Source: Escherichia coli
GTDB lineage: Bacteria; Pseudomonadota; Gammaproteobacteria; Enterobacterales; Enterobacteriaceae
Strand: one strand, 5' to 3'
DNA length: 64,000 nucleotides
Assembly: GCF_003334335.1 (NCBI RefSeq)
Contig: NZ_QOWQ01000001.1
Below, in pieces: positions 29,871 through 62,578 of the stretch (position 1 is the first letter of the stretch; every line of letters starts with the position of its first letter). Under the pieces are notes generated by a model. It saw nothing but the letters and a program-made list of their open reading frames with translations. It had not been told where the DNA came from and did no database searches. Made by a program: the position numbers and the translations under genes.

Positions 29871-29996
29871 TTAAAAAAGTAGCATCATATATTTGAAGCG
29901 ACTTTCAATGGCCATTGCAACACAGTCAGAAATGACAGGAATAGAGAGAGTAAAAAGCAACAACAGACTGAATATAGCGCGCATTAAAAAATTCAT
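29871..29996 (-). CDS. yqfG: 41-codon small hydrophobic protein, translationally abutted to the uacT stop (below the ORF-track cutoff)
   Basis: The minus strand reads ATG AAT TTT TTA ATG ... TAA, which translates to MNFLMRAIFSLLLLFTLSIPVISDCVAMAIESRFKYMMLLF. The ATG at 29996 is 1 nt after the uacT TAA (30000-29998). The gene name is recalled from the K-12 small-protein list. Confidence 0.55.
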   Translation of the reverse strand: MNFLMRAIFSLLLLFTLSIPVISDCVAMAIESRFKYMMLLF

Positions 29997-29997
29997 A

Positions 29998-31446
29998 TTA
30001 TTCTCCATGCTCATTTTTCTTCAGCTTGCGCATCAGAAGCCACATACGTACTGTCCTGACTTTTAAATCTTTATCAGAGACGGATTCCTTCACCAGGTCA
30101 GCATGATGCTGATAGCCATTAAAGAAGACGTTCAGCACAACGGCGCTAAGGGTTGCGAGCATAATGCCGCTATGTAGCAGCGGTTGCAGTACGGCCGGTA
30201 ACTTAGAAAAGAAATCGTGAGAGAGCGTCGGAGTCATGCCAACGCCGAGACTGATCGCCACAATATAGAGGTTGTAACGGTTGGTGGTGTAGTTACAGCG
30301 CGACAGAATTCGAATCCCTGTCGCCAGTACCATGCCGAACATCACTAGACCAGCGCCGCCCAGCACAAATTGCGGAATGGAGGCTACCAGCACCGCCATT
30401 TTTGGCACCATGCCAAACAGGATTAATATAATTCCCGAAGAAATACACACCCAGCGGCTATGAACGCGCGTCACGCTAACCAGGCCAACGTTTTGAGAAA
30501 ATGACGTGTGGGGGAAGCTGTTAAACGTGCCGCCTATCATTGTCCCTACGCCATCGACACGCAGCCCGCGAATAATATCGTGCGAAGAGAGTTTACGACC
30601 GACTATTTCACCCAGTGCCAGGAACATCCCCATCGACTCGATAAACACGATGATTAACACGGCAGTCATGGTCAGAATGGAAACGGGATCGAAAATCGGC
30701 ATACCAAACGACATCGGCGTAACAATCGCAAACCATGAAGCATCATGTAGCCCGGATAAATTGACTTCATTCATCATCCACGAAAGTAAAAAGCCAAATA
30801 CAATCCCCAGTAATACGGCGACGTTGGACATAAATCCTTTCGCATAGCGAGTAATGAGCAAGATAAAAATTAAGACGGCAAAGGAGATACCTAAATAAAC
30901 GGGATTACCATATTGCGGATTCCCTTTACCTCCGGCGGCCCAGTCAATACCCACCTGAATGATGCTAAGCCCGATAGAAGTAATAACCACACCGGTAACC
31001 AGTGGCGGGAATAAAGGCATCAAGCGACCGATAAGTGGCGCTAATAATGTGGTGATAAAACCCGCGGCGATAGTGGCACCAAATATCCCCAGCAGGCCGA
31101 TATCCGGGTTCATCCCAATGGCTATCATTGGTGTTACAGCAGCAAAGGTCACCGACATAATCACCGGCAGGCGGATCCCCATAAAGCGGCCGATACCGAT
31201 ACATTGCAATAATGTGACGATCCCGCAGCAAAAGAGATCCGAGCTAATGAGCATCGCAATAGCTTCTTTTGAGAGGCCCAGTCGGTCACCAATCATAAGA
31301 GGAACAGCGACTGCACCTGCGTACATGACAAGGACGTGTTGCAGACCGAGTATGATCAGCTTTCCTGGTGATAATATGCGGTCAACCTCATCAGTTGGGC
31401 GGTCTTGCCCAGAAGATGAGGGAAGTTGGGAATCTATGGCGCTCAT
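29998..31446 (-). CDS. uacT: Uric acid:H+ symporter, NAT/NCS2 family (YgfU)
   Basis: ORF 29998..31575 trimmed to ATG 31446, preceded by AAGGAGA. Sequence MSAIDSQLPSSSGQDRPTDE..., 482 aa. NAT signature FSQNVGLVSVTRVHSR. Confidence 0.93.
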   Translation of the reverse strand: MSAIDSQLPSSSGQDRPTDEVDRILSPGKLIILGLQHVLVMYAGAVAVPLMIGDRLGLSKEAIAMLISSDLFCCGIVTLLQCIGIGRFMGIRLPVIMSVTFAAVTPMIAIGMNPDIGLLGIFGATIAAGFITTLLAPLIGRLMPLFPPLVTGVVITSIGLSIIQVGIDWAAGGKGNPQYGNPVYLGISFAVLIFILLITRYAKGFMSNVAVLLGIVFGFLLSWMMNEVNLSGLHDASWFAIVTPMSFGMPIFDPVSILTMTAVLIIVFIESMGMFLALGEIVGRKLSSHDIIRGLRVDGVGTMIGGTFNSFPHTSFSQNVGLVSVTRVHSRWVCISSGIILILFGMVPKMAVLVASIPQFVLGGAGLVMFGMVLATGIRILSRCNYTTNRYNLYIVAISLGVGMTPTLSHDFFSKLPAVLQPLLHSGIMLATLSAVVLNVFFNGYQHHADLVKESVSDKDLKVRTVRMWLLMRKLKKNEHGE

Positions 31447-31477
31447 CAGTGTTTCTCCTTTCGCCCGCCAGAGTAAA

Positions 31478-31493
31478 AAGCAACCGTTTACGT
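31478..31493. promoter_or_regulatory. PurR-box-like palindrome in the uacT leader
   Basis: AAGCAACCGTTTACGT (minus strand ACGTAAACGGTTGCTT) matches ACGCAAACGTTTGCGT at 13/16, with the central CG kept. It lies between the candidate promoter and the uacT SD. Confidence 0.4.
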
Positions 31494-31514
31494 TAATGAA
31501 ACTGTCTAAACACA

Positions 31515-31530
31515 TGCTCGTGGAGTGCCA
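31515..31530 (-). promoter_or_regulatory. Candidate sigma54 (-24/-12) promoter reading into uacT
   Basis: The minus strand reads CTGGCAC-TCCAC-GAGCA. The -24 element is perfect and GG-N10-GC spacing is exact. The -12 flank is GA instead of TT. The -12 GC is about 70 nt upstream of the ATG. Confidence 0.35.
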
Positions 31531-31641
31531 GTTTTTGCGAGGAAGGGGAGTTAGAGACAGGAATTGCGGAGGCAATCACATAATCGTGGTTAAACCACGA
31601 AAATGAGAAGAGAACCTGACAATGGAATTATCTGTAATTTT

Positions 31642-31653
31642 CTCATATTGATA
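31642..31653 (+). promoter_or_regulatory. Conserved 12-mer box CTCATATTGATA, copy 1 of 3
   Basis: Exact match to 56860-56871 (+) and 62677-62688 (-). The extended match to the 56852 copy is GTAATT(TT)CTCATATTGATAT. Confidence 0.4.
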
Positions 31654-31881
31654 TTTCATTAATCATTCTGGCATGTCGCACTCTCGCATTTAATCGTTTT
31701 TATCTGGATAGCGCTCTTTTGATCGGCAATGTTGAAATAATGAAAGCGGCATAGATTGAGGGGCAATAATTTGAACTCAGTCGCAAAATTATAATTAAAA
31801 CGGTCATGCTACCTAATATATGCCCGTTTATTGCATCGCGAAATTTGAGAAGACATAACTCATTAAATGAAAGGGATGCAA

Positions 31882-33801
31882 ATGAATAAGTTTATTGCTG
31901 CTGAAGCTGCGGAATGTATAGGCTGTCATGCTTGTGAAATTGCCTGTGCGGTGGCACACAATCAAGAAAACTGGCCGCTGAGTCACAGTGACTTTCGACC
32001 GCGTATCCACGTTGTAGGGAAAGGCCAGGCTGCGAATCCGGTGGCCTGCCATCACTGCAACAATGCCCCTTGCGTTACGGCTTGTCCGGTTAATGCTCTG
32101 ACTTTCCAGTCCGATAGCGTACAACTGGACGAGCAAAAATGTATTGGTTGTAAAAGATGCGCAATCGCTTGCCCCTTTGGCGTCGTTGAGATGGTCGATA
32201 CGATTGCGCAGAAATGCGACCTTTGTAACCAGCGCAGTTCCGGCACGCAAGCCTGTATTGAAGTTTGCCCAACACAGGCGTTACGACTGATGGACGATAA
32301 AGGGTTGCAGCAGATAAAGGTGGCCCGCCAGCGCAAAACGGCAGCAGGAAAAGCGTCATCAGACGCTCAGCCATCTCGCAGTGCAGCGTTGCTCCCCGTT
32401 AACTCGCGTAAAGGCGCAGATAAAATTTCAGCGAGTGAACGGAAAACCCACTTTGGCGAAATATATTGCGGGCTGGATCCACAACAAGCGACTTATGAGA
32501 GTGACCGCTGTGTTTATTGTGCCGAAAAAGCTAACTGCAACTGGCATTGCCCGCTGCATAACGCTATTCCGGATTACATCCGTCTGGTACAGGAAGGAAA
32601 GATTATTGAAGCGGCAGAACTTTGCCACCAGACCAGTTCCTTACCAGAAATTTGCGGCAGGGTATGTCCACAGGACCGTCTTTGTGAAGGCGCATGTACT
32701 TTGAAAGATCACTCGGGCGCAGTCTCTATCGGTAATCTGGAACGCTACATCACCGATACCGCGCTGGCGATGGGCTGGCGTCCCGATGTCAGCAAAGTTG
32801 TTCCCCGTAGCGAAAAAGTGGCGGTGATTGGCGCTGGGCCTGCAGGGTTAGGGTGTGCTGATATTCTGGCGCGCGCAGGAGTTCAGGTCGATGTCTTTGA
32901 TCGCCATCCAGAAATTGGCGGTATGCTGACTTTTGGCATTCCTCCTTTCAAACTCGATAAAACGGTATTAAGCCAGCGGCGAGAGATATTCACCGCAATG
33001 GGAATCGACTTTCATCTTAACTGTGAAATTGGCCGCGATATTACCTTTAGCGATTTAACTTCTGAATATGATGCAGTTTTCATCGGCGTGGGGACTTACG
33101 GGATGATGCGAGCAGATCTGCCGCATGAAGATGCGCCCGGTGTCATTCAGGCTCTACCGTTCCTGACTGCCCATACCCGCCAGCTCATGGGATTGCCGGA
33201 GTCTGAAGAGTATCCGCTGACGGACGTGGAAGGTAAGCGAGTCGTGGTATTGGGCGGTGGCGATACGACAATGGATTGTTTGCGGACTTCCATCCGCCTC
33301 AATGCCGCCAGCGTGACCTGCGCGTATCGTCGTGATGAAGTCAGTATGCCGGGCTCGCGCAAAGAGGTGGTTAATGCGCGCGAGGAAGGTGTCGAGTTTC
33401 AGTTCAATGTTCAACCGCAATATATCGCTTGTGACGAAGATGGGCGTTTAACTGCGGTGGGCCTGATTCGTACCGCCATGGGTGAGCCGGGGCCGGATGG
33501 TCGCCGTCGTCCTCGTCCGGTAGCGGGTTCAGAGTTTGAATTGCCCGCCGATGTTCTGATTATGGCCTTTGGTTTCCAGGCGCATGCCATGCCGTGGTTG
33601 CAGGGCAGCGGAATTAAACTCGATAAATGGGGCCTGATTCAAACCGGTGACGTCGGGTATTTACCTACCCAGACGCATCTGAAAAAAGTCTTTGCTGGTG
33701 GTGATGCAGTTCATGGCGCGGATCTGGTTGTCACTGCAATGGCCGCAGGAAGGCAGGCGGCGCGCGATATGTTAACTCTGTTTGATACGAAGGCATCGTG
33801 A
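31882..33801 (+). CDS. ygfT: Fused 4x[4Fe-4S] ferredoxin / GltD-like NAD(P)H flavin oxidoreductase (AegA paralogue)
   Basis: ORF 31867..33801 trimmed to [18 protein letters not shown] (639 aa). It has four CxxCxxCxxxCP-type motifs, then [13 protein letters not shown]...[15 protein letters not shown], then [14 protein letters not shown] and [13 protein letters not shown]. Confidence 0.92.
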
Positions 33802-34289
33802 TGAAATCGTTAATTATCGTTAATCCGGCTGACTGTATTGGCTGCCGTACTTGTGAAGTAGCCTGTGTGGTCGCTCACCCTTCAGAACAGGAGTTGAATG
33901 CCGATGTCTTTTTACCCCGGCTGAAGGTACAGCGACTGGACAGCATCAGTGCGCCGGTGATGTGCCATCAGTGTGAAAACGCCCCTTGTGTTGGCGCTTG
34001 CCCCGTGGGGGCGCTGACGATGGGCGAGCAGGTGGTGCAGACCAATTCTGCCCGTTGTATTGGCTGTCAGAGTTGCGTCAGTGCGTGCCCGTTTGGAATG
34101 ATCACCATTCAGTCGTTGCCGGGGGATACCCGACAACAAATTGTGAAATGCGATCTCTGTGAACAGCGGGAAGAGGGGCCAGCCTGCGTTGAATCTTGCC
34201 CAACACAGGCGCTGCAGTTGCTTACTGAAAGAGAACTCAGGCGAGTCCGCCAGCAGCGTATTGTTGCCAGCGGTGAGAATCCTCTCTGA
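33801..34289 (+). CDS. ygfS: 4x[4Fe-4S] ferredoxin-type protein (HydN-like)
   Basis: ATG 33801 overlaps the ygfT TGA (TGATG). The 162 aa are colinear with residues 1-160 of YgfT ([11 protein letters not shown] / [14 protein letters not shown] / [12 protein letters not shown] / CDLCEQ...CVESCP). Confidence 0.92.
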
Positions 34290-50199: not shown

Positions 50200-50206
50200 A
50201 TGAAAA

Positions 50207-50234: not shown

Positions 50235-50256
50235 GAGACTGATGACAAACGCCAAA

Positions 50257-50357
50257 TTGCCTGATGCGCTACGCTTATCAGGCCTACAAGTGCATTGCAA
50301 TCTATTGAATTTGCGATGTTTTGTAGGACGGATAAGGCGCTCGCGCCGCATCCGGCA
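50257..50357. repeat. BIME: two inverted REP units
   Basis: TTGCCTGATGCGCTACGCTTATCAGGCCTACA ... TGTAGGACGGATAAGGCGCTCGCGCCGCATCCGGCA. Confidence 0.9.
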
Positions 50358-50386
50358 TCAACAAAGCGCACTTACTTGACAATCTT

Positions 50387-50414
50387 TGGCCGGATGGTAT
50401 TACCCACCCGGCCT
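50387..50414. terminator. 28-nt hairpin, copy 2; exact duplicate of 50207-50234, located 180 bp away next to the yqeA stop
   Basis: Identical 28-mer. The T-rich run (TTTAAATT) lies on the plus-strand side, so it would stop yqeB-direction transcripts. Confidence 0.45.
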
Positions 50415-50419
50415 TTAAA

Positions 50420-51399: not shown

Positions 51400-52785
51400 T
51401 TAGAGCACGGGAGGGACAAACGGTTTGCGTCGCAGGAAACGACCTCGCCCGGCTTTGCCTGTAAAGGTGCCGTCACAGAAAATCGTTTCACCACGGGATA
51501 AGGTTCTGACAATCGCGCCCTGACAGGTAAAACCCTCCCATGGCGAGTAGTCGGCGTTGTCGTGGAGATGGCGATGCTGAATTTGTTGGCTCTGACGTGG
51601 GTCGATAATCACCACGTCGCCGTCGGAACCGGGCGCTAATAATCCTTTTTGCGGCCACAGGCCAAACAACCTGGCGGGCATTGCGCTGGTTAATTCAACA
51701 AAGCGTTCCGGTGTTATACGTCCCGTCATCACGCCACTGGAAAACAGTAACTGCATGCGGTTTTCCACACCGGGTAAGCCATTTGGGCAGCGACTGAAAT
51801 CGCCTTTAGAAATTTGCAGGCGTTGAGCCATCGAGAAGGTGCAGTGATCGGTTGCCACCACGTCAATCGCACCATCGCTGATGCCACACCACAGTTTGTC
51901 CTGCTCGCGTACGTTACGCAGCGGTGGGCTAAGAATGAACTTCATGCCATCTTCTGTATCGTAACTGCGTTCGTCCAACAGGAGATATTGTGGGCAGGTT
52001 TCAACCCAGACTGGCTGGTGATTCGCACGGGCAAGACGCAGATAATCCAGACCTAAGCCGTTAGACAGGTGCACGATATAGAGCGGGGCGTTACCGGCAA
52101 TTTGTGCCAGGTTAATCATGCGGGCGATGGCTTCCGCTTCGCATTCCAGAGGGCGACTCAAGGCATGATAGCGCGGCGCGGTTAACCCTGCGGCGATAAA
52201 TTCCGCCCGCTTGCTGGCGATAGCCGCATCATTTTCCGGGTGCACGGTGGTCAGCGCGCCGGATTCATGCAAGCGGCGTAATGCCTGCAAAACCTCGTCA
52301 TCGTTGAGTTTGTATTGATAGGTTAAATAGAGTTTAAAACTGCTCAGTCCTTCCTCGACCATCATCGGGATTTCGTCGAGGATTGCGTGATTAATGTGCT
52401 GGATCACACCGTGAAAGCTGTAATCGATGACCGCTTTATGGGCGGCATAACCACGATAAACCTCCAGTTGATGGCGTAACCGACAGCCGTTTGGGCCAAA
52501 TCCCATATGGTCAATAATGGTTGTTGTACCGCCACACGCAGCTGCGCGGGTACCGGTAAAAAAATCATCACAACTGCGCGCGATGCCGACATCAATATTG
52601 AAATGCGTATGGACATCCACGCCGCCAGGGAAAACGTAACAGCCAGTGGCATCAATTTCTTCATACGGGAGCTGCGGCGAAATATTGTTGCCCAACTGGC
52701 GAACAATCCCGCTTTCAATCAGCAAATCCTGTTTGGCTTGTCCATCTGCGTTAACGACAGTGCCGTTTTTGATCAATACGCGCAT
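51400..52785 (-). CDS. hyuA: Cyclic amidohydrolase of the hydantoinase/dihydropyrimidinase family (D-phenylhydantoinase, YgeZ)
   Basis: ORF trimmed to ATG 52785 (MRVLIKNGTVVNADGQ...), 461 aa. Metal motif PGGVDVHTHF. Confidence 0.93.
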   Translation of the reverse strand: MRVLIKNGTVVNADGQAKQDLLIESGIVRQLGNNISPQLPYEEIDATGCYVFPGGVDVHTHFNIDVGIARSCDDFFTGTRAAACGGTTTIIDHMGFGPNGCRLRHQLEVYRGYAAHKAVIDYSFHGVIQHINHAILDEIPMMVEEGLSSFKLYLTYQYKLNDDEVLQALRRLHESGALTTVHPENDAAIASKRAEFIAAGLTAPRYHALSRPLECEAEAIARMINLAQIAGNAPLYIVHLSNGLGLDYLRLARANHQPVWVETCPQYLLLDERSYDTEDGMKFILSPPLRNVREQDKLWCGISDGAIDVVATDHCTFSMAQRLQISKGDFSRCPNGLPGVENRMQLLFSSGVMTGRITPERFVELTSAMPARLFGLWPQKGLLAPGSDGDVVIIDPRQSQQIQHRHLHDNADYSPWEGFTCQGAIVRTLSRGETIFCDGTFTGKAGRGRFLRRKPFVPPVL

Positions 52786-52793: not shown

Positions 52794-52820
52794 CCAAAAA
52801 CCCTCCGGCGAACCGGAGGG
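52794..52820 (-). terminator. Intrinsic-terminator-like hairpin inside the ygeY-hyuA junction
   Basis: The minus strand reads CCCTCCGG-ttcg-CCGGAGGG followed by TTTTTGGAGTTTGCT-ATG. The U-run runs straight into the hyuA SD. Confidence 0.55.
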
Positions 52821-52837: not shown

Positions 52838-54049
52838 TTACTCTGTTGCCAGCCAGCTTAACGGGATTGCAGCGTACATCGCGGCACAGGTCACCAGGTG
52901 AGATTTCCAGGTTTTTTCGTTAGGTGCATGCGCTTCAGGTTCTTTACCCGGGCCAAAGCCGATCACCGGAATGCCGTGACGGCCCATGATAGATACGCCG
53001 TTAGTTGAGAAGGTCCACTTATCAACAACCGGCGCTTTGCCAAACAGCCCTTCGTAGGCATTCACCAGTGCTTTAACGGTGAAGTGATCTTCTTCCACTT
53101 TCCAGGTCGGGAAGTAGCATTCGGTTGGGTAAACCAGGCCAGTCCAGGACGGACGGTCGTAGTTGTACATAGAAACAACCGCGTTAGCTTTCTGTACTGC
53201 AGGCAGGGCGCGGATTTCGTCCAGCGCGCCTTCCCAGGTTTCGCCCCAGGTCAGACGACGGTCGATTGAAACTGCGCAGCTGTCTGCTACAGCGCAACGG
53301 CTTGGGGATGTGAAGAAGATTTCAGAAACGGTGAGGGTGCCTTTGCCGAGGAATTCGTCATAACCCAGACGTTGGGAGAGTTCTTGTAATTCGCCAAGAA
53401 TCGGACCCATTTTGAAAATGGCGTTATCACCGCGTTCTGGTGCAGAACCGTGGCAGCTAACACCCTGAACATCAATACGAATTTCCATACGACCGCGCTG
53501 ACCACGGTATACCTGGCAGTCGGTTGGTTCGGTACTGACCACAAATTCCGGGCGAATGCCGGATTGTTCAATAATGTACTGCCAGCACAGACCGTCGCAG
53601 TCTTCTTCCTGCACCGTACCGGTAACCAGCAGGGTATATTCATCTTCCAGACCGAGGTCTTTAATGATTTTACCGGCATAAACCATAGAGGCCATGCCAC
53701 CTTCCTGGTCGGAAGTACCGCGACCACCAATCAGTTCATCAGTTTCCATGCCTTCGTACGGATCGAAGTCCCAGTTTTTGATGTTGCCAATGCCGACGGT
53801 ATCGATATGAGCGTCCATTGCCACCAGACGCGGGCCGTGGCCGATATAACCGAGAACGTTGCCCATCGGGTCGATTTCAACTTTATCGAAGCCGACTTTT
53901 TCCATCTCTTCTTTAATACGATGTACTACGCGTTTCTCGTCGCAGCTTTCACTGGGAATAGCAACCATGTCGCGCAGGAAGCGAGTCATATCCGCCTGGT
54001 AATCTTTTGCTTTTTCAAGAATCAGTTTGAATGGAATATTCTTAGCCAT
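52838..54049 (-). CDS. ygeY: M20-family metallo-peptidase/deacylase (N-carbamoyl- or N-acyl-amino-acid amidohydrolase-like)
   Basis: 403-aa ORF with MDAHIDTVG and [10 protein letters not shown] metal/catalytic motifs. Confidence 0.9.
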
Positions 54050-54106: not shown

Positions 54107-55303
54107 TTAAGGTGCTACAGCGTGTTTGCCTTCCCAGACAACTTCGCGGTAGTGCTTCACGTCGGTGTCGCCTTCAGTGCTGATAACCAGCACCACGGCA
54201 TCTTTGTTCAGCGCCAGTTTTTCCATCAGGCTTTGACGTTGCGGGTGATAATGAACCGCTGCGAGAACGCCCAAACCGACAGCGCCGGATTCACCGGAGA
54301 TGATGCGCGGGTCGTTGCCGTACGGATTACCCAGCACGCGCATACCTAATGCGGCAACGCTGTCCTGGCAGGAGATGAATTGGGTGGCGCAGTTACGTAG
54401 GATTTCCCAGCCCAGCGGGTTAGGTTCGCCACAGGCCAGGCCTGCCATGATGGTGGCCATATCACCGCCAACGTTGACGATGTCGCCTTTGACGCCGGAG
54501 CGATAAATACAGTCAGCTTTGTCAGGTTCAACAATAATGCTGTGCAGATTTTGCGGGCTATAGACGTCGACCAGATAACCCAGCACACCACCGGCCATTG
54601 CTCCGACACCGGCTTGCAGCAGAACGTGCGTCGGGGTTACGCCCATTTCACGCATTTGCTCGACGGCTTCATCTGCCAGGGTTGCGTAGCCTTGCATGAT
54701 CCAGGTTGGGATTTTGGTGTAACCTTCCCATGCCGTGTCCTGTACCACTTCCCAGCCGTGCTGCTGCGCGTGTTGCATGGTCAGGCGAACGGTATCGTCA
54801 TAGTTCATATCCGTGACGATGCACTCGGCACCGAGGTTCAGAATGGCGTCAACGCGTTCCTGAGCAGAACCTTTCGGCATGTAAATCACCGCATTCTGTC
54901 CGAGTTGCTGTGCTGCCCACGCCACACCGCGCCCGTGGTTGCCGTCGGTGGTGGTCGCGAAAGTCATTTTTTCGCCGATGGCATTTTTCAGGTGCTCAAA
55001 TGACAGCGTTTCGATATCAAGATGATATTTTTCACACAATAATTGAGCGATGGCGTACGCACCGCCAAGCATTTTGAAGGCGTTCAGACCGAATCGTTTT
55101 GATTCGTCTTTGACGAGAATTTTCTTCACACCAAAAAGGTTTGCGAGATCGTCCAGCGCACAAAGCGGTGTTGGGCGATAACCAGCTATTTTCTGGTGGA
55201 ACTGGCGCGCCAGTTTGGCCTGGCTTTGCGAAAAGAGCGGTGATGTTTCGCCGTTGAAAAATTTGTTATCGGCGATATCAATCTTCAATGAGAAAACGGA
55301 CAT
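54107..55303 (-). CDS. dpaL: 2,3-diaminopropionate ammonia-lyase (PLP)
   Basis: 398-aa ORF with PLP lysine context FGLNAFKMLGG. Confidence 0.93.
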   Translation of the reverse strand: MSVFSLKIDIADNKFFNGETSPLFSQSQAKLARQFHQKIAGYRPTPLCALDDLANLFGVKKILVKDESKRFGLNAFKMLGGAYAIAQLLCEKYHLDIETLSFEHLKNAIGEKMTFATTTDGNHGRGVAWAAQQLGQNAVIYMPKGSAQERVDAILNLGAECIVTDMNYDDTVRLTMQHAQQHGWEVVQDTAWEGYTKIPTWIMQGYATLADEAVEQMREMGVTPTHVLLQAGVGAMAGGVLGYLVDVYSPQNLHSIIVEPDKADCIYRSGVKGDIVNVGGDMATIMAGLACGEPNPLGWEILRNCATQFISCQDSVAALGMRVLGNPYGNDPRIISGESGAVGLGVLAAVHYHPQRQSLMEKLALNKDAVVLVISTEGDTDVKHYREVVWEGKHAVAP

Positions 55304-55360
55304 ATCCTATCCTTTTGGCCTCTGGAAATAGAGGGCCGACCAGCTGATCGGCCCGAGGGG

Positions 55361-56551
55361 TTATTTCACGCGTTCTTGCGCTTCTTTCAGCAGTTGCTCG
55401 AGCAGTGCACCTGGTTTGGCGTATTTACGGGACAGGATCATCGCGGCGATGATATAAGGCTTCCAGCTGGCTTCTTTGTAGGTAGCGATACGGTATTTTT
55501 CGAATACGCCTTCAGTCACTTCACCTTCTTTACAGGATACGCCGCTGATATCAGCTGGCAGGCAGTGCATGTACAGGGCTTCGCCATCACGGGTCAGTTC
55601 CATCATCTCTTCAGTACAATGCCAGTCTTTGTGTTGCGCGTTCTGTGCCAGACACTGTTTTTCCAGTGCTTTTAAGCCTTCGTGATCGTTCGCACGCAGC
55701 AATTCAGTACGCTCTTCCATCACTTTGTAAGGTGCCCATGACTTCGGATAAACGATGTCTGCGTCTTTGAAGGCTTCTTCCATGCTGGTGACCTGACGGA
55801 AGCTACCACCGGAGGCTTTAGCATTGTTTTTCGCCACTTCAACCACATCCGGGATCAGGTCGTAGCCTTCCGGATGGGCCAGGGTGACATCCATACCGAA
55901 GCGAGTCATCAGACCGATGATGCCTTGTGGTACAGAGAGCGGTTTGCCATAGCTTGGAGAGTAGGCCCAGGTCATGGCGATTTTTTTACCTTTCAGGTTT
56001 TCCAGTGAACCAAAGTGTTCACGTAACCACGCGAGGTCAGCCATTGACTGAGTCGGGTGGTCAATATCGCATTGCAGGTTCACTAAAGCCGGACGCTGTG
56101 GCAGTACACCCTGCTTGTAACCGTCATCAAGTGCAGCGCCAACTTCACGCATATAGGCGTTGCCTGCGCCCAGATACATATCGTCGCGAATACCAATAGC
56201 GTCGGCGCAGAAGGAGATCATATTGGCGGTTTCACGCACGGTTTCGCCGTGAGCGATTTGTGATTTGCCTTCGTCGAGATCTTGTTGTGCAAGGCCGAGC
56301 AGGTTAAGCGCGGAAGCATAAGAGAAGCGGGTACGGGTGGAGTTGTCGCGGAATACGGAAATACCTAATCCACTATTAAAGACTTTGGTTGAGATGTTTT
56401 CAGCACGCAGTGCTTTTAATGCTGCGGCAACGTCCAGTACTTGTTTCAGTTCATCTGGCGTCTGTTCCCACGTTAACAAAAAATCTTTCTCGTGAAGGTG
56501 AGAGGTCAGCGAATTGATATCCTTAATCAGCTCATTAACAGTTTTCATCAT
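55361..56551 (-). CDS. ygeW: Transcarbamylase-family protein whose physiological substrate I cannot assign
   Basis: 396-aa ORF with carbamoyl-phosphate motifs STRTR (NSTRTRFS), HPTQ (IDHPTQSMADL) and HCLP (MHCLPA). Confidence 0.92.
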   Translation of the reverse strand: MMKTVNELIKDINSLTSHLHEKDFLLTWEQTPDELKQVLDVAAALKALRAENISTKVFNSGLGISVFRDNSTRTRFSYASALNLLGLAQQDLDEGKSQIAHGETVRETANMISFCADAIGIRDDMYLGAGNAYMREVGAALDDGYKQGVLPQRPALVNLQCDIDHPTQSMADLAWLREHFGSLENLKGKKIAMTWAYSPSYGKPLSVPQGIIGLMTRFGMDVTLAHPEGYDLIPDVVEVAKNNAKASGGSFRQVTSMEEAFKDADIVYPKSWAPYKVMEERTELLRANDHEGLKALEKQCLAQNAQHKDWHCTEEMMELTRDGEALYMHCLPADISGVSCKEGEVTEGVFEKYRIATYKEASWKPYIIAAMILSRKYAKPGALLEQLLKEAQERVK

Positions 56552-56641: not shown

Positions 56642-56657
56642 AACAATAAGTGTGCCA
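56642..56657 (-). promoter_or_regulatory. Candidate sigma54 (-24/-12) promoter reading into ygeW-dpaL-ygeY-hyuA-yqeA
   Basis: The minus strand reads CTGGCAC-ACTTA-TTGTT. The -24 element is perfect and spacing is exact, but the -12 element is GT instead of GC. The -12 element is about 95 nt upstream of the ygeW ATG. Confidence 0.4.
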
Positions 56658-56700
56658 GAATTATCCGCGCGGCTGCAAAAGACTAATTTGACGGATAATG

Positions 56701-56716
56701 TGTGGGGTTGATCACA
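56701..56716. promoter_or_regulatory. CRP-like palindrome TGTGG-N6-TCACA upstream of the ygeW promoter candidate
   Basis: TGTGGGGTTGATCACA was read directly; 9/10 half-site positions match. Confidence 0.4.
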
Positions 56717-56764: not shown

Positions 56765-56859
56765 TTTTTTATCGCGTTATTTATTTGCTGCTAAGTATCA
56801 GAAATAAGATAAAGGGGCAGGCTATCTCTCTTCAGTTTGATAAACTCACCGCCGTAATT

Positions 56860-56871
56860 CTCATATTGATA
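56860..56871 (+). promoter_or_regulatory. Conserved 12-mer box CTCATATTGATA, copy 2 of 3
   Basis: Exact match to 31642-31653 and 62677-62688. It is followed by a TGATAT...TGATATC direct repeat. Confidence 0.4.
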
Positions 56872-57026
56872 TAGAAATGTGATATCTCTTCCATAATTTC
56901 ATTAGAAAATGATAAAAATCTTATGTTTTTATCAAAGCCAATTTCGCCTGAGTTAATATCATCATGATCTGTGAACCATCAACGTCTTCAATGATCGACT
57001 TTTAAGTAAGTCTGGAAGGTAAAGCT

Positions 57027-58805
57027 ATGGAGCTTGCTACTACGCAGTCAGTATTGATGCAAATTCAACCGACAATTCAGCGTTTTGCCAGAATGCTTGC
57101 CAGCGTTTTGCAGCTTGAGGTTGAGATCGTTGATGAAAACTTGTGTCGCGTTGCCGGAACGGGCGCGTATGGGAAGTTTCTTGGTCGCCAGTTGAGCGGC
57201 AACTCACGCCTGCTCCGCCACGTCCTGGAAACGAAAACTGAAAAAGTTGTGACACAGTCTCGCTTCGATCCCCTTTGCGAAGGTTGCGATAGTAAAGAAA
57301 ATTGCCGCGAAAAAGCATTTCTGGGTACGCCTGTCATTTTACAGGATCGTTGTGTTGGGGTGATAAGTTTGATTGCCGTTACCCACGAGCAACAAGAGCA
57401 TATCAGTGATAATTTACGCGAATTTTCTGATTATGTTCGCCATATATCCACCATTTTTGTTTCGAAACTTCTGGAGGATCAGGGGCCAGGAGATAACATC
57501 AGTAAAATATTTGCGACCATGATCGATAATATGGATCAGGGCGTATTAGTTGTAGATGATGAAAATCGGGTTCAGTTTGTTAATCAGACTGCCTTAAAAA
57601 CACTTGGTGTTGTGCAAAATAATATTATTGGGAAACCTATCCGTTTCAGACCATTAACATTTGAGAGTAATTTTACCCATGGACATATGCAGCATATTGT
57701 TTCATGGGACGATAAAAGTGAATTAATCATTGGTCAATTGCATAACATTCAGGGCCGACAATTATTTTTAATGGCGTTTCACCAATCGCATACCAGTTTT
57801 TCTGTAGCAAATGCACCTGATGAACCGCATATTGAACAATTGGTTGGCGAGTGCCGTGTTATGCGGCAATTAAAACGACTCATTAGCCGTATTGCACCCA
57901 GCCCATCCAGCGTTATGGTGGTTGGTGAAAGCGGCACGGGTAAAGAAGTCGTCGCCCGTGCAATCCATAAGTTGAGCGGAAGACGGAATAAACCCTTTAT
58001 TGCTATCAACTGTGCCGCGATTCCGGAGCAGCTTCTGGAGAGCGAACTGTTCGGTTATGTTAAAGGTGCATTTACTGGCGCTTCTGCCAACGGTAAAACA
58101 GGGTTGATTCAGGCGGCGAATACGGGCACGCTGTTTCTCGATGAAATAGGTGATATGCCATTAATGTTGCAGGCTAAATTACTGCGCGCTATTGAGGCAC
58201 GTGAAATTCTGCCGATTGGTGCCAGTAGCCCAATACAAGTCGACATTCGCATCATTTCTGCAACTAATCAGAATTTGGCCCAGTTCATTGCCGAAGGTAA
58301 ATTCCGCGAAGATCTCTTCTACCGACTTAATGTTATCCCGATAACTCTGCCACCGCTGCGTGAACGTCAGGAAGATATTGAACTATTGGTGCATTACTTT
58401 TTACATCTGCATACCCGTCGTCTGGGATCGGTTTATCCTGGCATTGCTCCCGATGTCGTCGAAATATTGCGTAAGCATCGTTGGCCCGGAAACCTGCGCG
58501 AGTTAAGCAATTTGATGGAATATCTGGTTAACGTGGTTCCTTCAGGTGAAGTTATCGACAGCACGCTATTGCCGCCAAATCTGCTGAATAATGGCACAAC
58601 GGAGCAAAGTGATGTAACAGAGGTCAGTGAGGCGCACCTGTCACTCGATGATGCGGGCGGCACGGCGCTGGAGGAGATGGAAAAGCAAATGATCCGCGAG
58701 GCGCTTTCACGTCATAACAGCAAGAAGCAAGTTGCTGATGAACTGGGCATCGGCATTGCTACGCTCTATCGCAAGATTAAGAAATATGAGTTGTTAAACA
58801 CATAA
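57027..58805 (+). CDS. ygeV: Sigma54-dependent transcriptional activator (bacterial enhancer-binding protein)
   Basis: 592-aa ORF with Walker A GESGTGKE, sigma54-contact loop GAFTGA, Fis-type HTH VADELGIGIATLYRKIKKY and an N-terminal sensor + PAS-like region. Confidence 0.95.
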   Translation: MELATTQSVLMQIQPTIQRFARMLASVLQLEVEIVDENLCRVAGTGAYGKFLGRQLSGNSRLLRHVLETKTEKVVTQSRFDPLCEGCDSKENCREKAFLGTPVILQDRCVGVISLIAVTHEQQEHISDNLREFSDYVRHISTIFVSKLLEDQGPGDNISKIFATMIDNMDQGVLVVDDENRVQFVNQTALKTLGVVQNNIIGKPIRFRPLTFESNFTHGHMQHIVSWDDKSELIIGQLHNIQGRQLFLMAFHQSHTSFSVANAPDEPHIEQLVGECRVMRQLKRLISRIAPSPSSVMVVGESGTGKEVVARAIHKLSGRRNKPFIAINCAAIPEQLLESELFGYVKGAFTGASANGKTGLIQAANTGTLFLDEIGDMPLMLQAKLLRAIEAREILPIGASSPIQVDIRIISATNQNLAQFIAEGKFREDLFYRLNVIPITLPPLRERQEDIELLVHYFLHLHTRRLGSVYPGIAPDVVEILRKHRWPGNLRELSNLMEYLVNVVPSGEVIDSTLLPPNLLNNGTTEQSDVTEVSEAHLSLDDAGGTALEEMEKQMIREALSRHNSKKQVADELGIGIATLYRKIKKYELLNT

Positions 58806-58838: not shown

Positions 58839-58844
58839 ATCCTT

Positions 58845-59324
58845 TTACTTCGTTTTCTCGCAATCCAGAACTGTATTTACAATCATCTGATACCCCGTGC
58901 AGCGACAAAGATTTCCCGCCAGTCCGCGACGAATTTCCGTAATGGTTAATGGCTTCTCGCGTGGTTTCGCCAGCATTGCCGTGGTAGCCATAATCAGGCC
59001 AGGCGTACAAAACCCGCACTGCACTGCGCCGGATTTCGCATAAGCCTGCTGAACATGAGAAAGTTTTCCGCCTTTCGCTTCACCTTCCAGCGTGCGGATC
59101 TCTTTTCCTTCAGCCCAGGCGGCAAGGTATAAGCAACTGTCTATTGCTGTGCCGTCGACCAACACCGTACAGGCACCACATTCACCCACGCAGCACCCTT
59201 GTTTGACACTTAGCAGTCCTTGTTCGCGGAGTAATTCCGAGAGCGGCGTGCCTGGTGCGGCGTGAAGCTGAAAAGGCATCCCGTTAATGGTGCATTCGAT
59301 GGTAATTGTTTCGCTGTGATTCAT
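58845..59324 (-). CDS. xdhC: Xanthine dehydrogenase [2Fe-2S] subunit
   Basis: 159-aa ORF with both cluster motifs CCVGECGAC...C and CGFCTPG...CRCTGY. Confidence 0.95.
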
Positions 59325-60199
59325 TGCAATTTTCCCCCCGCCGCGGCGACGGCTTCGCTAATCACTTTTTTGGTCATCGTCTGGATGAGATGCAGACGAA
59401 ACTCTTTACTGGCCCGCCATGAAGAACGCGGGGCGACATCTTGCAGGACAGATTCGCTGATAGCTTCCAGCGTTTGCAGGTTTAATGGCGCATTTTGTGC
59501 AGTCTGTTCGGCATGTTGGCAGCGAATCGGCGTTGGCGCGGCAACACCAAATGCCAGGCGTAATTCGCTGAAATTGCCGTTATCCAGTCGGCAATGTGCG
59601 GCGCAGCCAATCGTTGAAATATCCATTGCGTCGCGCATGGCATATTTAAAATGCGCGCTGCCCGCGTGTTCTTTCGGCTGTGGCGGAAAATGAAAGGCGA
59701 CGAGGATTTCGTCATGCTCAAGAGACACTTTGCCCGGCCCGGTGTGAAAGCCATTAATCGGGACGAAACGAACACCGCGCGGGGAGTGGATCTCCAGTTT
59801 CGCGTCATAAATTAGCGTTGGCGTGGCAGAATCTGCGCTGGTGGCACCGTTGCAAATATTTCCACCGTAGGTAGCGACGTTACGGATCTGCGGTCCAGCA
59901 ATGGACGTGGCCGCAGCACATAACGCCGGGAGATGACGTTGAGTTATAGGATCTTCTATTAGCTGGGTAAATGTCGTTGCAGAGCCGATACGTAGCGAGC
60001 CATCTTCCGCCAGCGTAATTCCCCGCAGCTCCGCCAGATTATGAATATCAACAATATGGCGATAACGGTCATTGTGATGGTGGAGCTGAATCAGTACGTC
60101 AGTGCCACCGGCGAGCAGTTTGGCCTGCGGGTTGTCAGCCAGCAGGTTGATGGCATCGGCAAGGGTTGCTGCGCGATGGTAAGAAGCAAAATCAAACAT
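59321..60199 (-). CDS. xdhB: Xanthine dehydrogenase FAD-binding subunit
   Basis: 292-aa ORF with LLAGGTDVL; 4-nt overlap with xdhC. Confidence 0.95.
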
Positions 60200-60209
60200 G
60201 ATGTTATCC

Positions 60210-62468
60210 TCAAATCAATCCTGCCAGATGGAACTCTTCATATAACCGTTTTGGCGTCAGCGGCAGTGTATTGATTGCAACACCGGTAGCCATCTTCACC
60301 GCGTTACGAATAGCAGCGGCAACAGGAATTATTGGTGGCTCACCCAGTGACTTATGTCCGTATGCGGATTGCGGCTCATTGATTTCGACGAACGCGCTTT
60401 CCAGTTGTGGCAGATCCGGCATGGTCGGCATTTTGTAATCCAGCAGATTGGGGTTACGGACCACGCCGCTTTTAGCATCGATGATCATCTCTTCAAATAG
60501 CGCCCAGCCAATGCCCATTCCCATTCCGCCGTGTACCTGACCTTCTGCCAGCAGTGGATTAAGAATATGCCCTGAATCATGAACGTTGAGGATGCGGTTG
60601 ATGGTGACTTTGCACAGCGCAATATCGACCGTCAGATCAACAAAGGTACAGCCAAACGCCGGTGGGTTAGTGGTGGTTTTGATGGAGCTTTCAGCAGAGA
60701 GCTGCCCGCCGCGTTCAGGGTGGTAGAAAGCGTCCATCGCCAAATCTTTTAACGACATTAACGGCTCTTCCGGTCGTTCAACCAGCACGATATGGCCTTT
60801 TATCAGGGTCAGATTCATCGCTGACTGATGTAGCATGACTGCGGCGTGAGCGATGATTTTCTCTTTTAATAATAGTGCCGCACTGCGCAGCGCAGGCGCG
60901 GCAACATAGCTCTGGCGTGAGGCAAATGCGCCGGGATCGAACGGCGTAACGTCGGTATCTTGAGTTGAAATAACGCGAACGTCGCTGACCGGAACCCCCA
61001 CGGTTTCTGCCACCATTTGCGAGAAGACGGTGTCGGCACCCTGACCGATTTCCGTCGCGCCGCTTTGCACGTTGATGGTTCCATCCTGATTCATCAGAAG
61101 GCGCGCGCCTGCTATTTCTACGCCGACAGGCCAGGTGTTAGAGGTGTAGCTAAAACAGGCGACGCCAACGCCGCGGCGCAAATTGCCTTGCTGGTTCTGG
61201 CATTCTGCACGGCGTTTTTCCCATTCAAAGATTTTCCGGCCTTTTTCAAGACACTCCGGCAACCCTGCGCTGTAAATACGTTTGCCCGTGAGCGGATTAG
61301 CATCTCCTTCGCGGGCGGCGTTGCGTAAACGAATTTCAACAGGATCAATACCTAACGCTGTCGCGGCGTCATCAAGCATAGACTCAACGGCAAATACGAC
61401 TTGTGGCGCGCCATAACCACGCATCGCACCAGCCGAGGGGAGGTTGGTATAGCAGGTCTTTGAACTGTAAGCGTAGGCACAACGAGGATAAAGGTAAGCG
61501 ACTTTATTCCCCCCCGCAGAAGCGATGGAGTGCCCGTGAGATGCATAAGCGCCGGTGTTAGACAGAACATCCAGACTATAACCTTTCAATGTTCCGTCGC
61601 GGTTCACGCCCATTTGCCCGTCAATGGTAAAAGCGTGGCGGGTACGGGTTGCGAGGAAACACTCTTCACGGCTAAGGGAAACTTTCACCGGAATGCCGCC
61701 AAGCTTGCTGGTCAGGAATGCCGCCATTGGCTCTTCCAGTACATCCTGTTTATTACCAAAACCGCCACCGACAAATGGTTTGATGACTCGTACGCATGAC
61801 CAGGGAATATCCAGCGCCTGACCAACCACGCGGCGAACAATGTGCGGGATCTGGGTGCTGGAAACGATGGTAATTCGCGAGTCATCCTCCATCCACGCCA
61901 GCGATGTTACGCTTTCCATGTGACAATGTTGAATAACGGGGGTCTGATAGTGCCCCTGTACCTGGTAGTCGGCGGCATCGATTGTTTGTTGGACATTACC
62001 CGTCGACATCGTGCTTTGTTTCAGTAAATTGCCACCGTTATGGATTGGTGCAGCGTCTTCTGCCAGCGCCGCTTCTGGCGTGGTGATAACGGGTAATTCT
62101 TGCCACTCAATGCTGACCAATTGCGCCGCTTTTTCTGCCGTGAGTTCATCGCGGGCCACGACGATGGCAACGGCGTCACCATGATGACGAACATGGCGAG
62201 TTAGCAGTGCGCGATCGGCGGTATCGCGCTTGTTTTCGTCAAGTGTCCAGGCATGCCCAGCTGTAGCGAATGGAATATCAGGCACATCTTCCCAGGTAAA
62301 AATCGCCAGTACGCCCGGCAAACTTCTGGCTTGTTCATCATTAATACTTACGGCATAACCATGTGCGATAGGGCTACGTACATATTTCGCATAACACATG
62401 CCCGCCATAACATAATCGTCAGTATATCGTGCCCGCCCGGTGACCTTAGCAATGGCATCGACGCGCAT
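60210..62468 (-). CDS. xdhA: Xanthine dehydrogenase molybdenum-binding subunit
   Basis: ORF 60210..62507. ATG 62468 (MRVDAIAKVTGRARYTDDY) gives the remembered 752 aa. The upstream ATG 62507 has the better SD (see findings). Confidence 0.92.
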   Translation of the reverse strand: MRVDAIAKVTGRARYTDDYVMAGMCYAKYVRSPIAHGYAVSINDEQARSLPGVLAIFTWEDVPDIPFATAGHAWTLDENKRDTADRALLTRHVRHHGDAVAIVVARDELTAEKAAQLVSIEWQELPVITTPEAALAEDAAPIHNGGNLLKQSTMSTGNVQQTIDAADYQVQGHYQTPVIQHCHMESVTSLAWMEDDSRITIVSSTQIPHIVRRVVGQALDIPWSCVRVIKPFVGGGFGNKQDVLEEPMAAFLTSKLGGIPVKVSLSREECFLATRTRHAFTIDGQMGVNRDGTLKGYSLDVLSNTGAYASHGHSIASAGGNKVAYLYPRCAYAYSSKTCYTNLPSAGAMRGYGAPQVVFAVESMLDDAATALGIDPVEIRLRNAAREGDANPLTGKRIYSAGLPECLEKGRKIFEWEKRRAECQNQQGNLRRGVGVACFSYTSNTWPVGVEIAGARLLMNQDGTINVQSGATEIGQGADTVFSQMVAETVGVPVSDVRVISTQDTDVTPFDPGAFASRQSYVAAPALRSAALLLKEKIIAHAAVMLHQSAMNLTLIKGHIVLVERPEEPLMSLKDLAMDAFYHPERGGQLSAESSIKTTTNPPAFGCTFVDLTVDIALCKVTINRILNVHDSGHILNPLLAEGQVHGGMGMGIGWALFEEMIIDAKSGVVRNPNLLDYKMPTMPDLPQLESAFVEINEPQSAYGHKSLGEPPIIPVAAAIRNAVKMATGVAINTLPLTPKRLYEEFHLAGLI

Positions 62469-62562
62469 GCATGATTCACCCGTAGCGGTTGCTTCCCGCG
62501 CTTCCATAGAAATCCCCTCGATTTGAACATTTGGTTCTTATGGCAAAGATTTAGTCTAAGCA

Positions 62563-62578
62563 GGCAAGATTTACGCCA
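62563..62578 (-). promoter_or_regulatory. Candidate sigma54 (-24/-12) promoter reading into xdhABC
   Basis: The minus strand reads CTGGCGT-AAATC-TTGCC. GG-N10-GC spacing is exact and TGGC/TTGC are conserved. The -12 GC is about 55 nt (ATG 62507) or 95 nt (ATG 62468) upstream of the start. Confidence 0.4.

Follow-up and report, generated by a model that had tools for sequence, protein, structure and literature searches.

The purine and urate catabolic locus of Escherichia coli: gene content, published chemistry, and a dyad conserved upstream of its sigma-54 promoters

Does a 33-kb block of Escherichia coli genes for nucleobase uptake, oxidation, and ring opening encode one anaerobic route from purines to pyruvate, and how would such a route be regulated? 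We addressed this question for positions 29,871 to 62,578 of a 64,000-nucleotide stretch of E. coli DNA (contig NZ_QOWQ01000001.1, assembly GCF_003334335.1), hereafter the window. An initial annotation, made without database searches, had read the block as a single route to pyruvate, NH3, CO2, and ATP whose order of steps was not fully known. The block is almost certainly the purine/urate catabolic locus of E. coli K-12, covering uptake to pyruvate under the control of sigma-54, YgeV, and CRP. This system is already known in detail and was published stepwise from 2023 to 2025; the finding is correct, not new. The locus represents gut-bacterial urate removal in hosts without uricase, and work is under way to build the route into probiotics for use against hyperuricaemia and gout (Li et al. 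2025, PMC12507026; commentary PMC12990295). Since its importance is recognised and its chemistry published, our analysis adds no new system. It does offer a conserved dyad as a concrete handle on the regulatory question of how YgeV senses purines.

Identity with the K-12 locus

The block holds 22 contiguous genes and the 41-codon yqfG, as initially described, in the order yqfG, uacT, ygfT, ygfS, ghxQ, guaD, xanQ, xdhD, ygfM, ssnA, ygfK, mocA, yqeC, yqeB, yqeA, hyuA, ygeY, dpaL, ygeW, ygeV, xdhC, xdhB, and xdhA. All are intact, with one start, a terminal stop, and no internal stop codon. Gene calls were taken from the RefSeq annotation of strain ML35 mapped to the window (yqeA is named arcC there), the two sequences differing at 4 positions in 38 kb. 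Compared with MG1655, the block showed 4 mismatches and no gaps over 32,708 nt (99.988% nucleotide identity). Gene set, order, and orientation are the same as from xdhA (b2866) to uacT (b2888) plus yqfG (b4684) at NC_000913.3 ~3,000,235-3,032,942, and the sigma-54 sites are identical; the annotated start codons of xdhA, guaD, and ygeW vary between records, that of xdhA lying 13 codons further in for K-12 than in the window annotation. At the protein level, 21 of the 23 products are identical to those of MG1655, with one substitution each in XanQ and HyuA (1 residue of 461 in the latter). The identical proteins include XdhD, YgfM, YgfK, SsnA, YgeW, YgeY, DpaL, and YqeA. Several other E. coli genomes were 100% identical to the block over 22 kb in a megablast search of complete E. 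coli genomes. Because of this near-identity, what is known of b2866 to b2888 in K-12 is directly applicable to the window. A single base at window position 59239 makes xdhC a pseudogene with an internal stop in ML35; the window xdhC is intact and encodes 159 amino acids.

Every family assignment of the initial annotation was borne out by profile matches above curated cut-offs (NCBIfam/TIGRFAM and Pfam). UacT and XanQ matched NCS2/pbuX permeases and carry the NAT signature, defined here as [Q/E/P]-N-x-G-x-x-x-x-T-[R/K/G], as QNVGLVSVTR at residue 318 and QNNGVIQMTG at residue 324, respectively. The GhxQ sequence contained no NAT motif, consistent with the AzgA-like subgroup. YgfK and YgfT both have Fer4_20 domains of the dihydropyrimidine dehydrogenase (DPD) type and Pyr_redox_2 domains. 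The locus had been described as holding two of almost everything. The pairs are indeed present, but the redundancy that this suggests did not hold up, as the pairs act in sequence. Pairwise identity between paired genes was 26 to 34% (46% for YgfS against the N-terminus of YgfT), and on sequence grounds the pairs are ancient paralogues; at 26 to 34% identity, recent duplication was ruled out as their origin.

The route from purines to pyruvate

In the proposed route, GhxQ would import guanine and hypoxanthine, XanQ xanthine, and UacT urate. GuaD would convert guanine to xanthine, and XdhABC would oxidise hypoxanthine and xanthine to urate. XdhD-YgfM then converts urate with NADH to 2,8-dioxopurine, which is reduced and dearomatised by YgfK with NAD(P)H, after which SsnA opens the six-membered ring of dihydro-2,8-dioxopurine to give ureidomethyl-hydantoin. 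With the hydantoin ring opened by HyuA, 2,3-diureidopropionate loses one ureido group by YgeW-mediated phosphorolysis to carbamoyl phosphate, from which YqeA produces ATP, CO2, and NH3. YgeY hydrolyses the other ureido group, and DpaL (YgeX) splits the resulting 2,3-diaminopropionate into pyruvate and 2 NH3. This agrees with the single anaerobic route proposed initially and with the published accounts (Li et al. 2025; Liu et al. 2025; PMC12990295). The balance put forward at that time follows from the published steps: urate plus four electrons yields pyruvate, 2 CO2, and 4 NH3, with one ATP from one carbamoyl phosphate.

The steps from urate to pyruvate have been shown in the literature with the same E. 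coli proteins. Purified E. coli XdhD co-purifies with YgfM and converts urate and NADH to 2,8-dioxopurine; YgfK and SsnA with NAD(P)H take 2,8-dioxopurine to ureidomethyl-hydantoin; HyuA yields 2,3-diureidopropionate, from which YgeW, supplied with phosphate, takes off one ureido group, and YgeY with YgeX forms pyruvate (Li et al. 2025, PMC12507026). The same study proposed that Glu606 of XdhD orients urate, and this residue is present in the window protein. Isotope tracing in Clostridium sporogenes and E. coli mutants led to an identical route, which was reconstituted with E. coli YgfK, SsnA, HyuA, YgeW, YgeY, YgeX, and YqeA; ATP formation was tied to YgeW and YqeA, with YqeA stimulating YgeW (Liu et al. 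2025, bioRxiv 10.1101/2025.04.24.650524). The view that the pathway is incompletely assigned is therefore outdated: the sequence of steps has been established, with reconstitution in vitro, and a single step is disputed, namely, which ureido group YgeW removes first. Both E. coli MG1655 and Nissle have been shown to turn urate into pyruvate or acetate anaerobically.

Genetic data point the same way. The initial annotation had called for a deletion test, and a published one came out in its favour, every mutant being partly blocked in urate use and none forming labelled acetate (Liu et al.). A ΔxdhA strain did not use xanthine, and a ΔxdhD strain accumulated urate on xanthine (Li et al. 2025, PMC12507026). 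XdhABC and XdhD-YgfM are thus sequential and non-redundant, urate being made and then reduced. In the window, ygeW, dpaL, ygeY, hyuA, and yqeA are contiguous on one strand with gaps of 47 to 57 nt.

Molybdenum cofactor and selenium

Three markers of the selenium-dependent trait, YqeB, YqeC, and YgfJ/MocA, were above cut-off; their genes lie between ygfK and yqeA, near a molybdenum (Mo) hydroxylase. In YqeB, the selenium-cofactor model TIGR03309 covers residues 271-526 (417 bits), and XdhC_CoxI and XdhC_C cover residues 12-247. Comparative genomics is the source of the link, named in the initial annotation, between a selenium-dependent Mo hydroxylase and the genes ygfK, ssnA, yqeB, and yqeC, and it also listed selD for E. 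coli (Haft and Self 2008, PMC2276186); selD is b1764 and lies outside the window. Clostridial Mo enzymes require selenophosphate synthase, with selenium dependence in C. sporogenes and C. difficile and a requirement for YqeB/SelD in C. difficile (Liu et al. 2025, bioRxiv 10.1101/2025.04.24.650524). In E. coli, MocA, YqeB, and YqeC would mature the cytosine-dinucleotide molybdenum cofactor, probably also in a selenium-carrying form, and we infer that XdhD requires the YqeB/YqeC/SelD selenium cofactor.

Sigma-54 promoters, YgeV, and CRP

Four sigma-54 promoters (xdhA, ygeW, ygfK, and ygfT) would drive expression of the locus together with YgeV and catabolite control by CRP. Chromatin immunoprecipitation with sequencing (ChIP-seq) placed sigma-54 sites upstream of these four genes (Bonocora et al. 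2015). The four ChIP-seq 17-mers occur verbatim in the window, 47 to 94 nt upstream of the four start codons. An RpoN peak between ygeV and ygeW was also reported from genomic SELEX (systematic evolution of ligands by exponential enrichment). A generic sigma-54 scan (TGGCAC-N5-TTGCA, at most 3 mismatches) was not above chance, with 203 matches against 228.5 expected. A sigma-54-like element also lies upstream of uacT (31515-31530, TGGCACTCCACGAGCA). It was not counted as a promoter because it is absent among the ChIP-seq sites listed, which include its four neighbours.

YgeV carries the sigma-54 interaction domain (PF00158, 237.6 bits), AAA_lid_14, and HTH_8. A role as response regulator was ruled out, as YgeV has no receiver domain and a weak GAF-like region plus PAS instead; on this architecture it is probably a ligand-sensing activator. 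Expression of ygfT is lower in a ygeV mutant, as cited in the iModulon study, and the sigma-54 activator DioR has the orthologous Clostridiales genes as its regulon. An expression check, also suggested initially, has largely been published in the form of the ChIP-seq sites, the iModulon, and the lower ygfT expression. For catabolite control, a native Crp site in the ygeW/ygeV gap and glucose repression were reported (Li et al. 2025, PMC12507026). The CRP-like pattern matches TGTGGGGTTGATCACA and TGTGAATGAACTCACA agree with the reported glucose repression of urate use.

A dyad conserved upstream of the sigma-54 promoters

Comparison of the regions upstream of the four sigma-54 elements revealed a dyad, TATCA-N3-TGATA, 100 to 300 bp upstream of the -24/-12 elements of all four promoters. 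An exact 12-mer, CTCATATTGATA, occurs in three copies in the 64-kb window, only in the uacT/ygfT, ygeW/ygeV, and xdhA/actS gaps; allowing one mismatch, it gave 5 matches where 0.21 were expected. The palindrome with at most one mismatch gave 7 matches against 1.21 expected, 5 of which fall within the four promoter-bearing gaps, which together cover about 2% of the window. In 71 of 73 related loci, the dyad was present upstream of ygfK at a fixed distance of 160 to 185 nt from the sigma-54 element, against a background of 0.126 matches per kb; its arms do not vary, whereas its 3-nt spacer does. Its range extends over Enterobacterales, Aeromonas, and Ferrimonas, and 18 related loci also have it in the ygfT/uacT gap. 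No match was found in 29 kb around aegA, which encodes a YgfT paralogue, and ybiY-ybiW, which belongs to the YgeV iModulon; by the dyad criterion these genes are not supported as direct targets.

We consider TATCA-N3-TGATA a candidate YgeV enhancer site. A description of the dyad was not found in the searchable literature; a prior description is still possible. If the assignment is right, the dyad defines the YgeV operator and opens the full YgeV regulon, as well as the inducing purine, to discovery.

Distribution and variant clusters

At least 80% of the left 22 kb of the block was carried in one piece by 5149 of 5426 complete E. coli genomes, and at least 80% of the right 10.6 kb by 5160 of the 5426; 94 had no match to the latter. 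In E. coli fS149a (NZ_CM176575.1, locus L083, 14288-14985), the whole 33-kb block is gone and an IS1A lies between idi and actS. Taken together with the genome counts, this replacement indicates that the locus is near-core but dispensable. In Shigella flexneri SFBU0723 (CP182557.1, locus L006), hyuA, yqeB, xdhD, and ygfT are each broken up between several frames, and the ygfK match ends after residue 313; this decay could be real pseudogenisation or could reflect assembly indel errors.

Relatives were collected by a genome scan with an SsnA alignment; the best 80 of 395 loci, 65 of them full length, were all from Gammaproteobacteria, so that co-occurrence across phyla rests on the literature. 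Such a profile, another check proposed initially, was published in 2008 and pointed to "a 23-gene purine catabolism and selenate reduction region", with yqeB, yqeC, ssnA, ygeY, ygfJ, xdhA, ygeW, and ygfK among its top hits (Haft and Self 2008, PMC2276186). Across the 65 full-length loci, the following genes lay no more than 10 kb from ssnA: ygfK (64, adjacent to ssnA in all of these; the E. coli spacing is 2 nt), yqeB (55), yqeA (52), hyuA (51), ygeY (48), and ygfT-ygfS (36, including loci with a different Mo hydroxylase).

Variant clusters (loci L026-L063) occur in Klebsiella oxytoca/michiganensis, Raoultella, Kluyvera, Cedecea, and some Serratia, for example in Klebsiella michiganensis (L039) and Raoultella ornithinolytica (L030). 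Like E. coli, they have ygeW-dpaL-ygeY-hyuA-yqeA followed by ygfK-ssnA, with the dyad upstream of ygfK; ygfS-ygfT and a uacT-like permease directly follow ssnA. Unlike E. coli, they have no xdhD-ygfM, xanQ, guaD, or ghxQ within 10 kb. They encode a three-subunit XdhABC-like enzyme (27 to 30% identity to XdhA) with its own mocA-like gene, and in several loci yqeB consists only of the C-terminal TIGR03309 half.

That ygfS-ygfT is kept beside ssnA in this variant layout argues that YgfT-YgfS is part of the enterobacterial pathway core. The initial annotation had named a tie of ygfT to formate-dependent urate degradation; a genetic tie of this kind is indeed attributed to Iwadate and Kato (2019, J Bacteriol) where that study is cited elsewhere, and the NCBIfam model matched by YgfT bears a name to the same effect. 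We infer that YgfT-YgfS passes formate-derived electrons to the two reductive steps. The chances seem about even that both parts of a wider proposal are right, namely, that the dyad is the YgeV operator and that YgfT-YgfS is a conserved electron-input module and not an E. coli-specific extra. If so, YgfT-YgfS would route formate or ferredoxin electrons either to NAD(P)H or straight to the reductases.

Comparison with other pathways

The initial annotation had also pointed to homologous clusters in gut anaerobes, and the literature bears this out. The reductive urate clusters of C. sporogenes and C. difficile share with E. coli the urate-to-pyruvate chemistry, SsnA, HyuA, YgeY, YgeX, a Mo hydroxylase, the YqeB/YqeC selenium trait, and sigma-54 control (DioR in Clostridiales). 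In clostridia, however, the first enzyme is XdhAC, or XdhD without the FAD subunit YgfM (Li et al. 2025; Liu et al. 2025). C. difficile further uses a PydA-like UacX in place of YgfK and a hydrolase, UacY, in place of YgeW and YqeA, a step without ATP (Li et al. 2025, PMC12507026). Beyond the clostridial set, E. coli has xdhABC, guaD, three permeases, and ygfT-ygfS linked to the cluster.

An analogy to reductive pyrimidine degradation (PydA/DPD, the dihydropyrimidinase PydB, and PydC) was drawn by Li et al. 2025 (PMC12507026). Both routes reduce the ring, open it with a cyclic amidohydrolase, and remove the carbamoyl group, and the likeness extends to the DPD-type Fer4_20 and flavin domains of YgfK and to the match of HyuA to the dihydropyrimidinase model TIGR02033. 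The urate route differs in that a Mo enzyme first has to dehydroxylate the purine, two rings and two ureido groups have to be dealt with, and one carbamoyl group is kept as carbamoyl phosphate for ATP. The aerobic uricase/allantoin route and the Rabinowitz clostridial fermentation likewise dispose of urate or xanthine with release of NH3 and CO2. In the former, however, urate is oxidised to allantoin, and enzymes and intermediates are entirely unlike those of E. coli; the latter ends in formiminoglycine rather than pyruvate and uses entirely different enzymes.

Alternative explanations

It is possible, though on balance unlikely, that the block consists of neighbouring separable modules: one for uptake and oxidation or salvage (ghxQ, guaD, xanQ, xdhABC), one for cofactor maturation (mocA, yqeC, yqeB), and the reductive urate genes. 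About 20 of the 65 related loci have no xanQ-guaD-ghxQ-xdhD-ygfM within 10 kb of ssnA and possess the distant XdhABC-like enzyme instead; xdhABC is seldom found less than 10 kb from ssnA, though it lies beyond that range in E. coli too. XdhABC can also run backwards and so feed urate into xanthine salvage (Li et al. 2025, PMC12507026), and the YgeV iModulon list does not contain guaD, xanQ, ghxQ, mocA, yqeB, or yqeC. A modular build is, however, compatible with a single route, and the sequential action in vivo seen in the ΔxdhD strain on xanthine (Li et al. 2025, PMC12507026) argues for one, as do the sigma-54 promoter type and dyad that xdhA has in common with ygeW, ygfK, and ygfT. Phylogenetic profiling, moreover, put 11 top hits in one 23-gene region (Haft and Self 2008, PMC2276186). 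That YgfK, YgfM, and XdhD form a selenate reductase in a cluster devoted mainly to selenium metabolism is the least probable reading and hardly credible. It draws on the NCBIfam/RefSeq name of YgfK, "putative selenate reductase subunit", and on a listing of ygfK, ygfM, and ygfN as subunits that cites earlier genetics (Haft and Self 2008, PMC2276186). The activities of purified XdhD-YgfM on urate and of YgfK with SsnA on 2,8-dioxopurine contradict it, the metabolite blocks in ΔxdhD and ΔygfK strains match the urate route (Li et al. 2025, PMC12507026), and a selenium-containing Mo-hydroxylase cofactor better explains the link to selenium.

For regulation, YgeV might mainly control virulence in response to indole (as IsrR) or act in stress regulation, with the purine genes chiefly under other factors such as CRP and anaerobic regulators. 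Indeed, ygeV belongs to the genes that indole induces most in enterohaemorrhagic E. coli and affects locus of enterocyte effacement (LEE) expression and Citrobacter rodentium virulence. The YgeV iModulon peaks in activity in ethanol-treated baeR or cpxR knockouts, and both the glucose repression of urate use and the Crp site in the ygeV-ygeW gap would fit. We nevertheless regard this explanation as very unlikely: ygeV sits inside the cluster, divergent from ygeW; the four sigma-54 sites require an activator and none other is encoded nearby; ygfT expression falls in a ygeV mutant; DioR governs the orthologous Clostridiales cluster; and a cluster-specific conserved dyad lies at enhancer distance from each promoter.

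Against the reading preferred here, a YgeV-controlled route from purines to pyruvate, several points have to be set. YgeV has been described as IsrR and, in the iModulon study, linked to ethanol stress; the sigma-54 site of ygfT fits the consensus poorly; and the conservation of the dyad is partly inflated by kinship of the loci. The 2025 papers give different answers as to the ureido group that YgeW takes off first (commentary PMC12990295), and these enzymology papers contain no assays of YgfT, YgfS, YqeB, YqeC, or YgeV; Li et al. 2025 (PMC12507026) does not mention ygfT, ygfS, or yqeB. How E. coli uses urate varies greatly with medium and strain even though the proteins are more than 98% identical, so gene presence is no proof of flux, and activity in the strain of the window is presumed from near-identity to K-12.

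Transcription units and other features of the window

The features of the locus are collected with their coordinates in Table 1. The left edge of the block, 29871, is the stop of yqfG, and the right edge, 62578, falls within the sigma-54 element of xdhA. yqfG had no Pfam match, and its sole tie to the pathway is adjacency. Terminator-like hairpins were found by consensus scan after xdhD (38602-38617), ygeW (55333-55354), and ygeY (52801-52820). The first is a possible terminator or attenuator between ygfK-ssnA-ygfM-xdhD and xanQ-guaD-ghxQ. About 8 transcription units had been counted initially, a fair estimate; given the three hairpins, we arrive at 9 to 11. Sigma-70 promoter scans remained at chance (22 matches against 19.3 expected and 17 against 18.9).

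Table 1. Features of the purine/urate locus by window position; dyads and CRP-like sites are candidate sites
Feature	Position	Strand	Description
yqfG	29871-29996	-	41-codon open reading frame, 1 nt downstream of uacT; identical to K-12 b4684
uacT (ygfU)	29998-31446	-	urate:H+ symporter, NAT/NCS2; TIGR03173, 509.8 bits; 100% identical to K-12
Dyad	31641-31653		TCTCATATTGATA; uacT/ygfT gap, ~172 nt upstream of ygfT sigma-54 element
Sigma-54 site of ygfT	31819-31835	+	TATGCCCGTTTATTGCA; weak match without GG; ChIP-seq OS32
ygfT	31882-33801	+	Fe-S flavoprotein, HydN-like 4Fe-4S N-terminus and GltD/DPD-like domain; NF009451, 1505.9 bits
ygfS	33801-34289	+	4Fe-4S dicluster ferredoxin-like; 1-nt overlap with ygfT, translationally coupled
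ghxQ	34325-35692	-	guanine/hypoxanthine permease, AzgA type; PF00860 (Xan_ur_permease), 271.5 bits
guaD	35728-37044	-	guanine deaminase, guanine to xanthine; TIGR02967, 633.6 bits
xanQ	37062-38462	-	xanthine:H+ symporter, NAT/NCS2; TIGR03173, 415.2 bits
Hairpin and T-run	38602-38617	-	GC-rich, after xdhD; consensus scan only
xdhD	38627-41497	-	fused 2Fe-2S and molybdopterin subunit; TIGR03313, 2122.8 bits (cut-off 1101.9)
ygfM	41494-42273	-	FAD-binding subunit of XdhD; TIGR03312, 489.7 bits (cut-off 241.5)
ssnA	42324-43652	-	TRZ/ATZ-type amidohydrolase, as is GuaD; TIGR03314, 737.9 bits (cut-off 455.5)
ygfK	43655-46753	-	NAD(P)H-dependent Fe-S flavoenzyme; TIGR03315, 1778.7 bits (cut-off 835.3)
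Sigma-54 element of ygfK	46826-46842	-	GTGGTGCGATTGTTGCT; 73 nt upstream of ATG; ChIP-seq OS31; conserved in related loci
CRP-like site	46905-46920		TGTGAATGAACTCACA; ygfK/mocA gap; pattern match
Dyad, perfect	47011-47023		TATCATTATGATA; ~175 nt upstream of ygfK sigma-54 element
mocA (ygfJ)	47075-47653	-	molybdenum cofactor cytidylyltransferase; TIGR03310, 214.2 bits
yqeC	47756-48526	+	accessory protein, selenium-dependent Mo-hydroxylase trait; TIGR03172, 240.9 bits, and Pfam YqeC
yqeB	48574-50199	+	XdhC-like N-terminal half fused to TIGR03309 selenium-cofactor domain
yqeA	50420-51352	-	carbamate kinase, carbamoyl phosphate + ADP to ATP + CO2 + NH3; TIGR00746, 385.6 bits
hyuA	51400-52785	-	hydantoinase, ureidomethyl-hydantoin to 2,3-diureidopropionate; TIGR02033, 675.5 bits
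ygeY	52838-54049	-	M20 hydrolase, removes remaining ureido group to give 2,3-diaminopropionate; TIGR03526, 721.6 bits
dpaL (ygeX)	54107-55303	-	pyridoxal phosphate-dependent 2,3-diaminopropionate ammonia-lyase, to pyruvate + 2 NH3; TIGR03528, 651.1 bits
ygeW	55361-56548	-	knotted carbamoyltransferase, phosphorolysis of one ureido group to carbamoyl phosphate; NF005538, 825.2 bits
Sigma-54 element of ygeW	56642-56658	-	CTGGCACACTTATTGTT; 94 nt upstream of ATG; ChIP-seq OS30
CRP-like site	56701-56716		TGTGGGGTTGATCACA; ygeW/ygeV gap; pattern match
Dyad	56859-56871		TCTCATATTGATA; ygeW/ygeV gap, ~207 nt upstream of ygeW sigma-54 element
Dyad	56957-56969		TATCATCATGATC; ~305 nt upstream of ygeW sigma-54 element; 58 nt upstream of ygeV ATG
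ygeV	57027-58805	+	sigma-54 enhancer-binding protein; weak GAF-like 44-127, PAS from 162, AAA+ 272-439, Fis-type helix-turn-helix 548-587
xdhC	58845-59324	-	2Fe-2S subunit of xanthine dehydrogenase; NF007387, 341.9 bits
xdhB	59321-60199	-	FAD subunit of xanthine dehydrogenase; Pfam FAD_binding_5 and CO_deh_flav_C
xdhA	60210-62507	-	molybdopterin subunit, hypoxanthine/xanthine to urate; Pfam Ald_Xan_dh_C and MoCoBD_1/2
Sigma-54 element of xdhA	62563-62579	-	CTGGCGTAAATCTTGCC; 56 nt upstream of ATG; ChIP-seq OS29
Dyad	62677-62689	-	ACTCATATTGATA; ~104 nt upstream of xdhA sigma-54 element
Dyad	62698-62710		AATCAATGTGATA; ~125 nt upstream of xdhA sigma-54 element; 21 bp from ACTCATATTGATA

The yqeB/yqeA gap (50200-50419) contains a bacterial interspersed mosaic element of the repetitive extragenic palindromic type (BIME/REP) with two palindromic units, flanked by a 26-nt direct repeat, GGCCGGATGGTATTACCCACCCGGCC, at 50209-50234 and 50390-50415. 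This element probably accounts for the many matches of the 22-kb query, a median of 22 in each E. coli genome. At the left edge, the small open reading frame yqfH (29803-29874, +) overlaps the end of yqfG on the other strand; another, yqfI, is annotated at 11772-11855 (-).

Outside the block, the window carries the SibC antitoxin RNA (5848-5998, -) opposite the ibsC toxin open reading frame (5864-5923, +), 6S RNA (ssrS, 6647-6830, -), a match to the REP-derived naRNA4 (20341-20418, -), and tRNA-Gly (glyU, 63756-63829, +). A 76-codon fragment of a LysR substrate-binding domain lies between argP and rpiA (3202-3432, +). Left of the block, beside lysS and idi, prfB (26531-27629) is annotated as a two-piece coding sequence with its programmed +1 frameshift.

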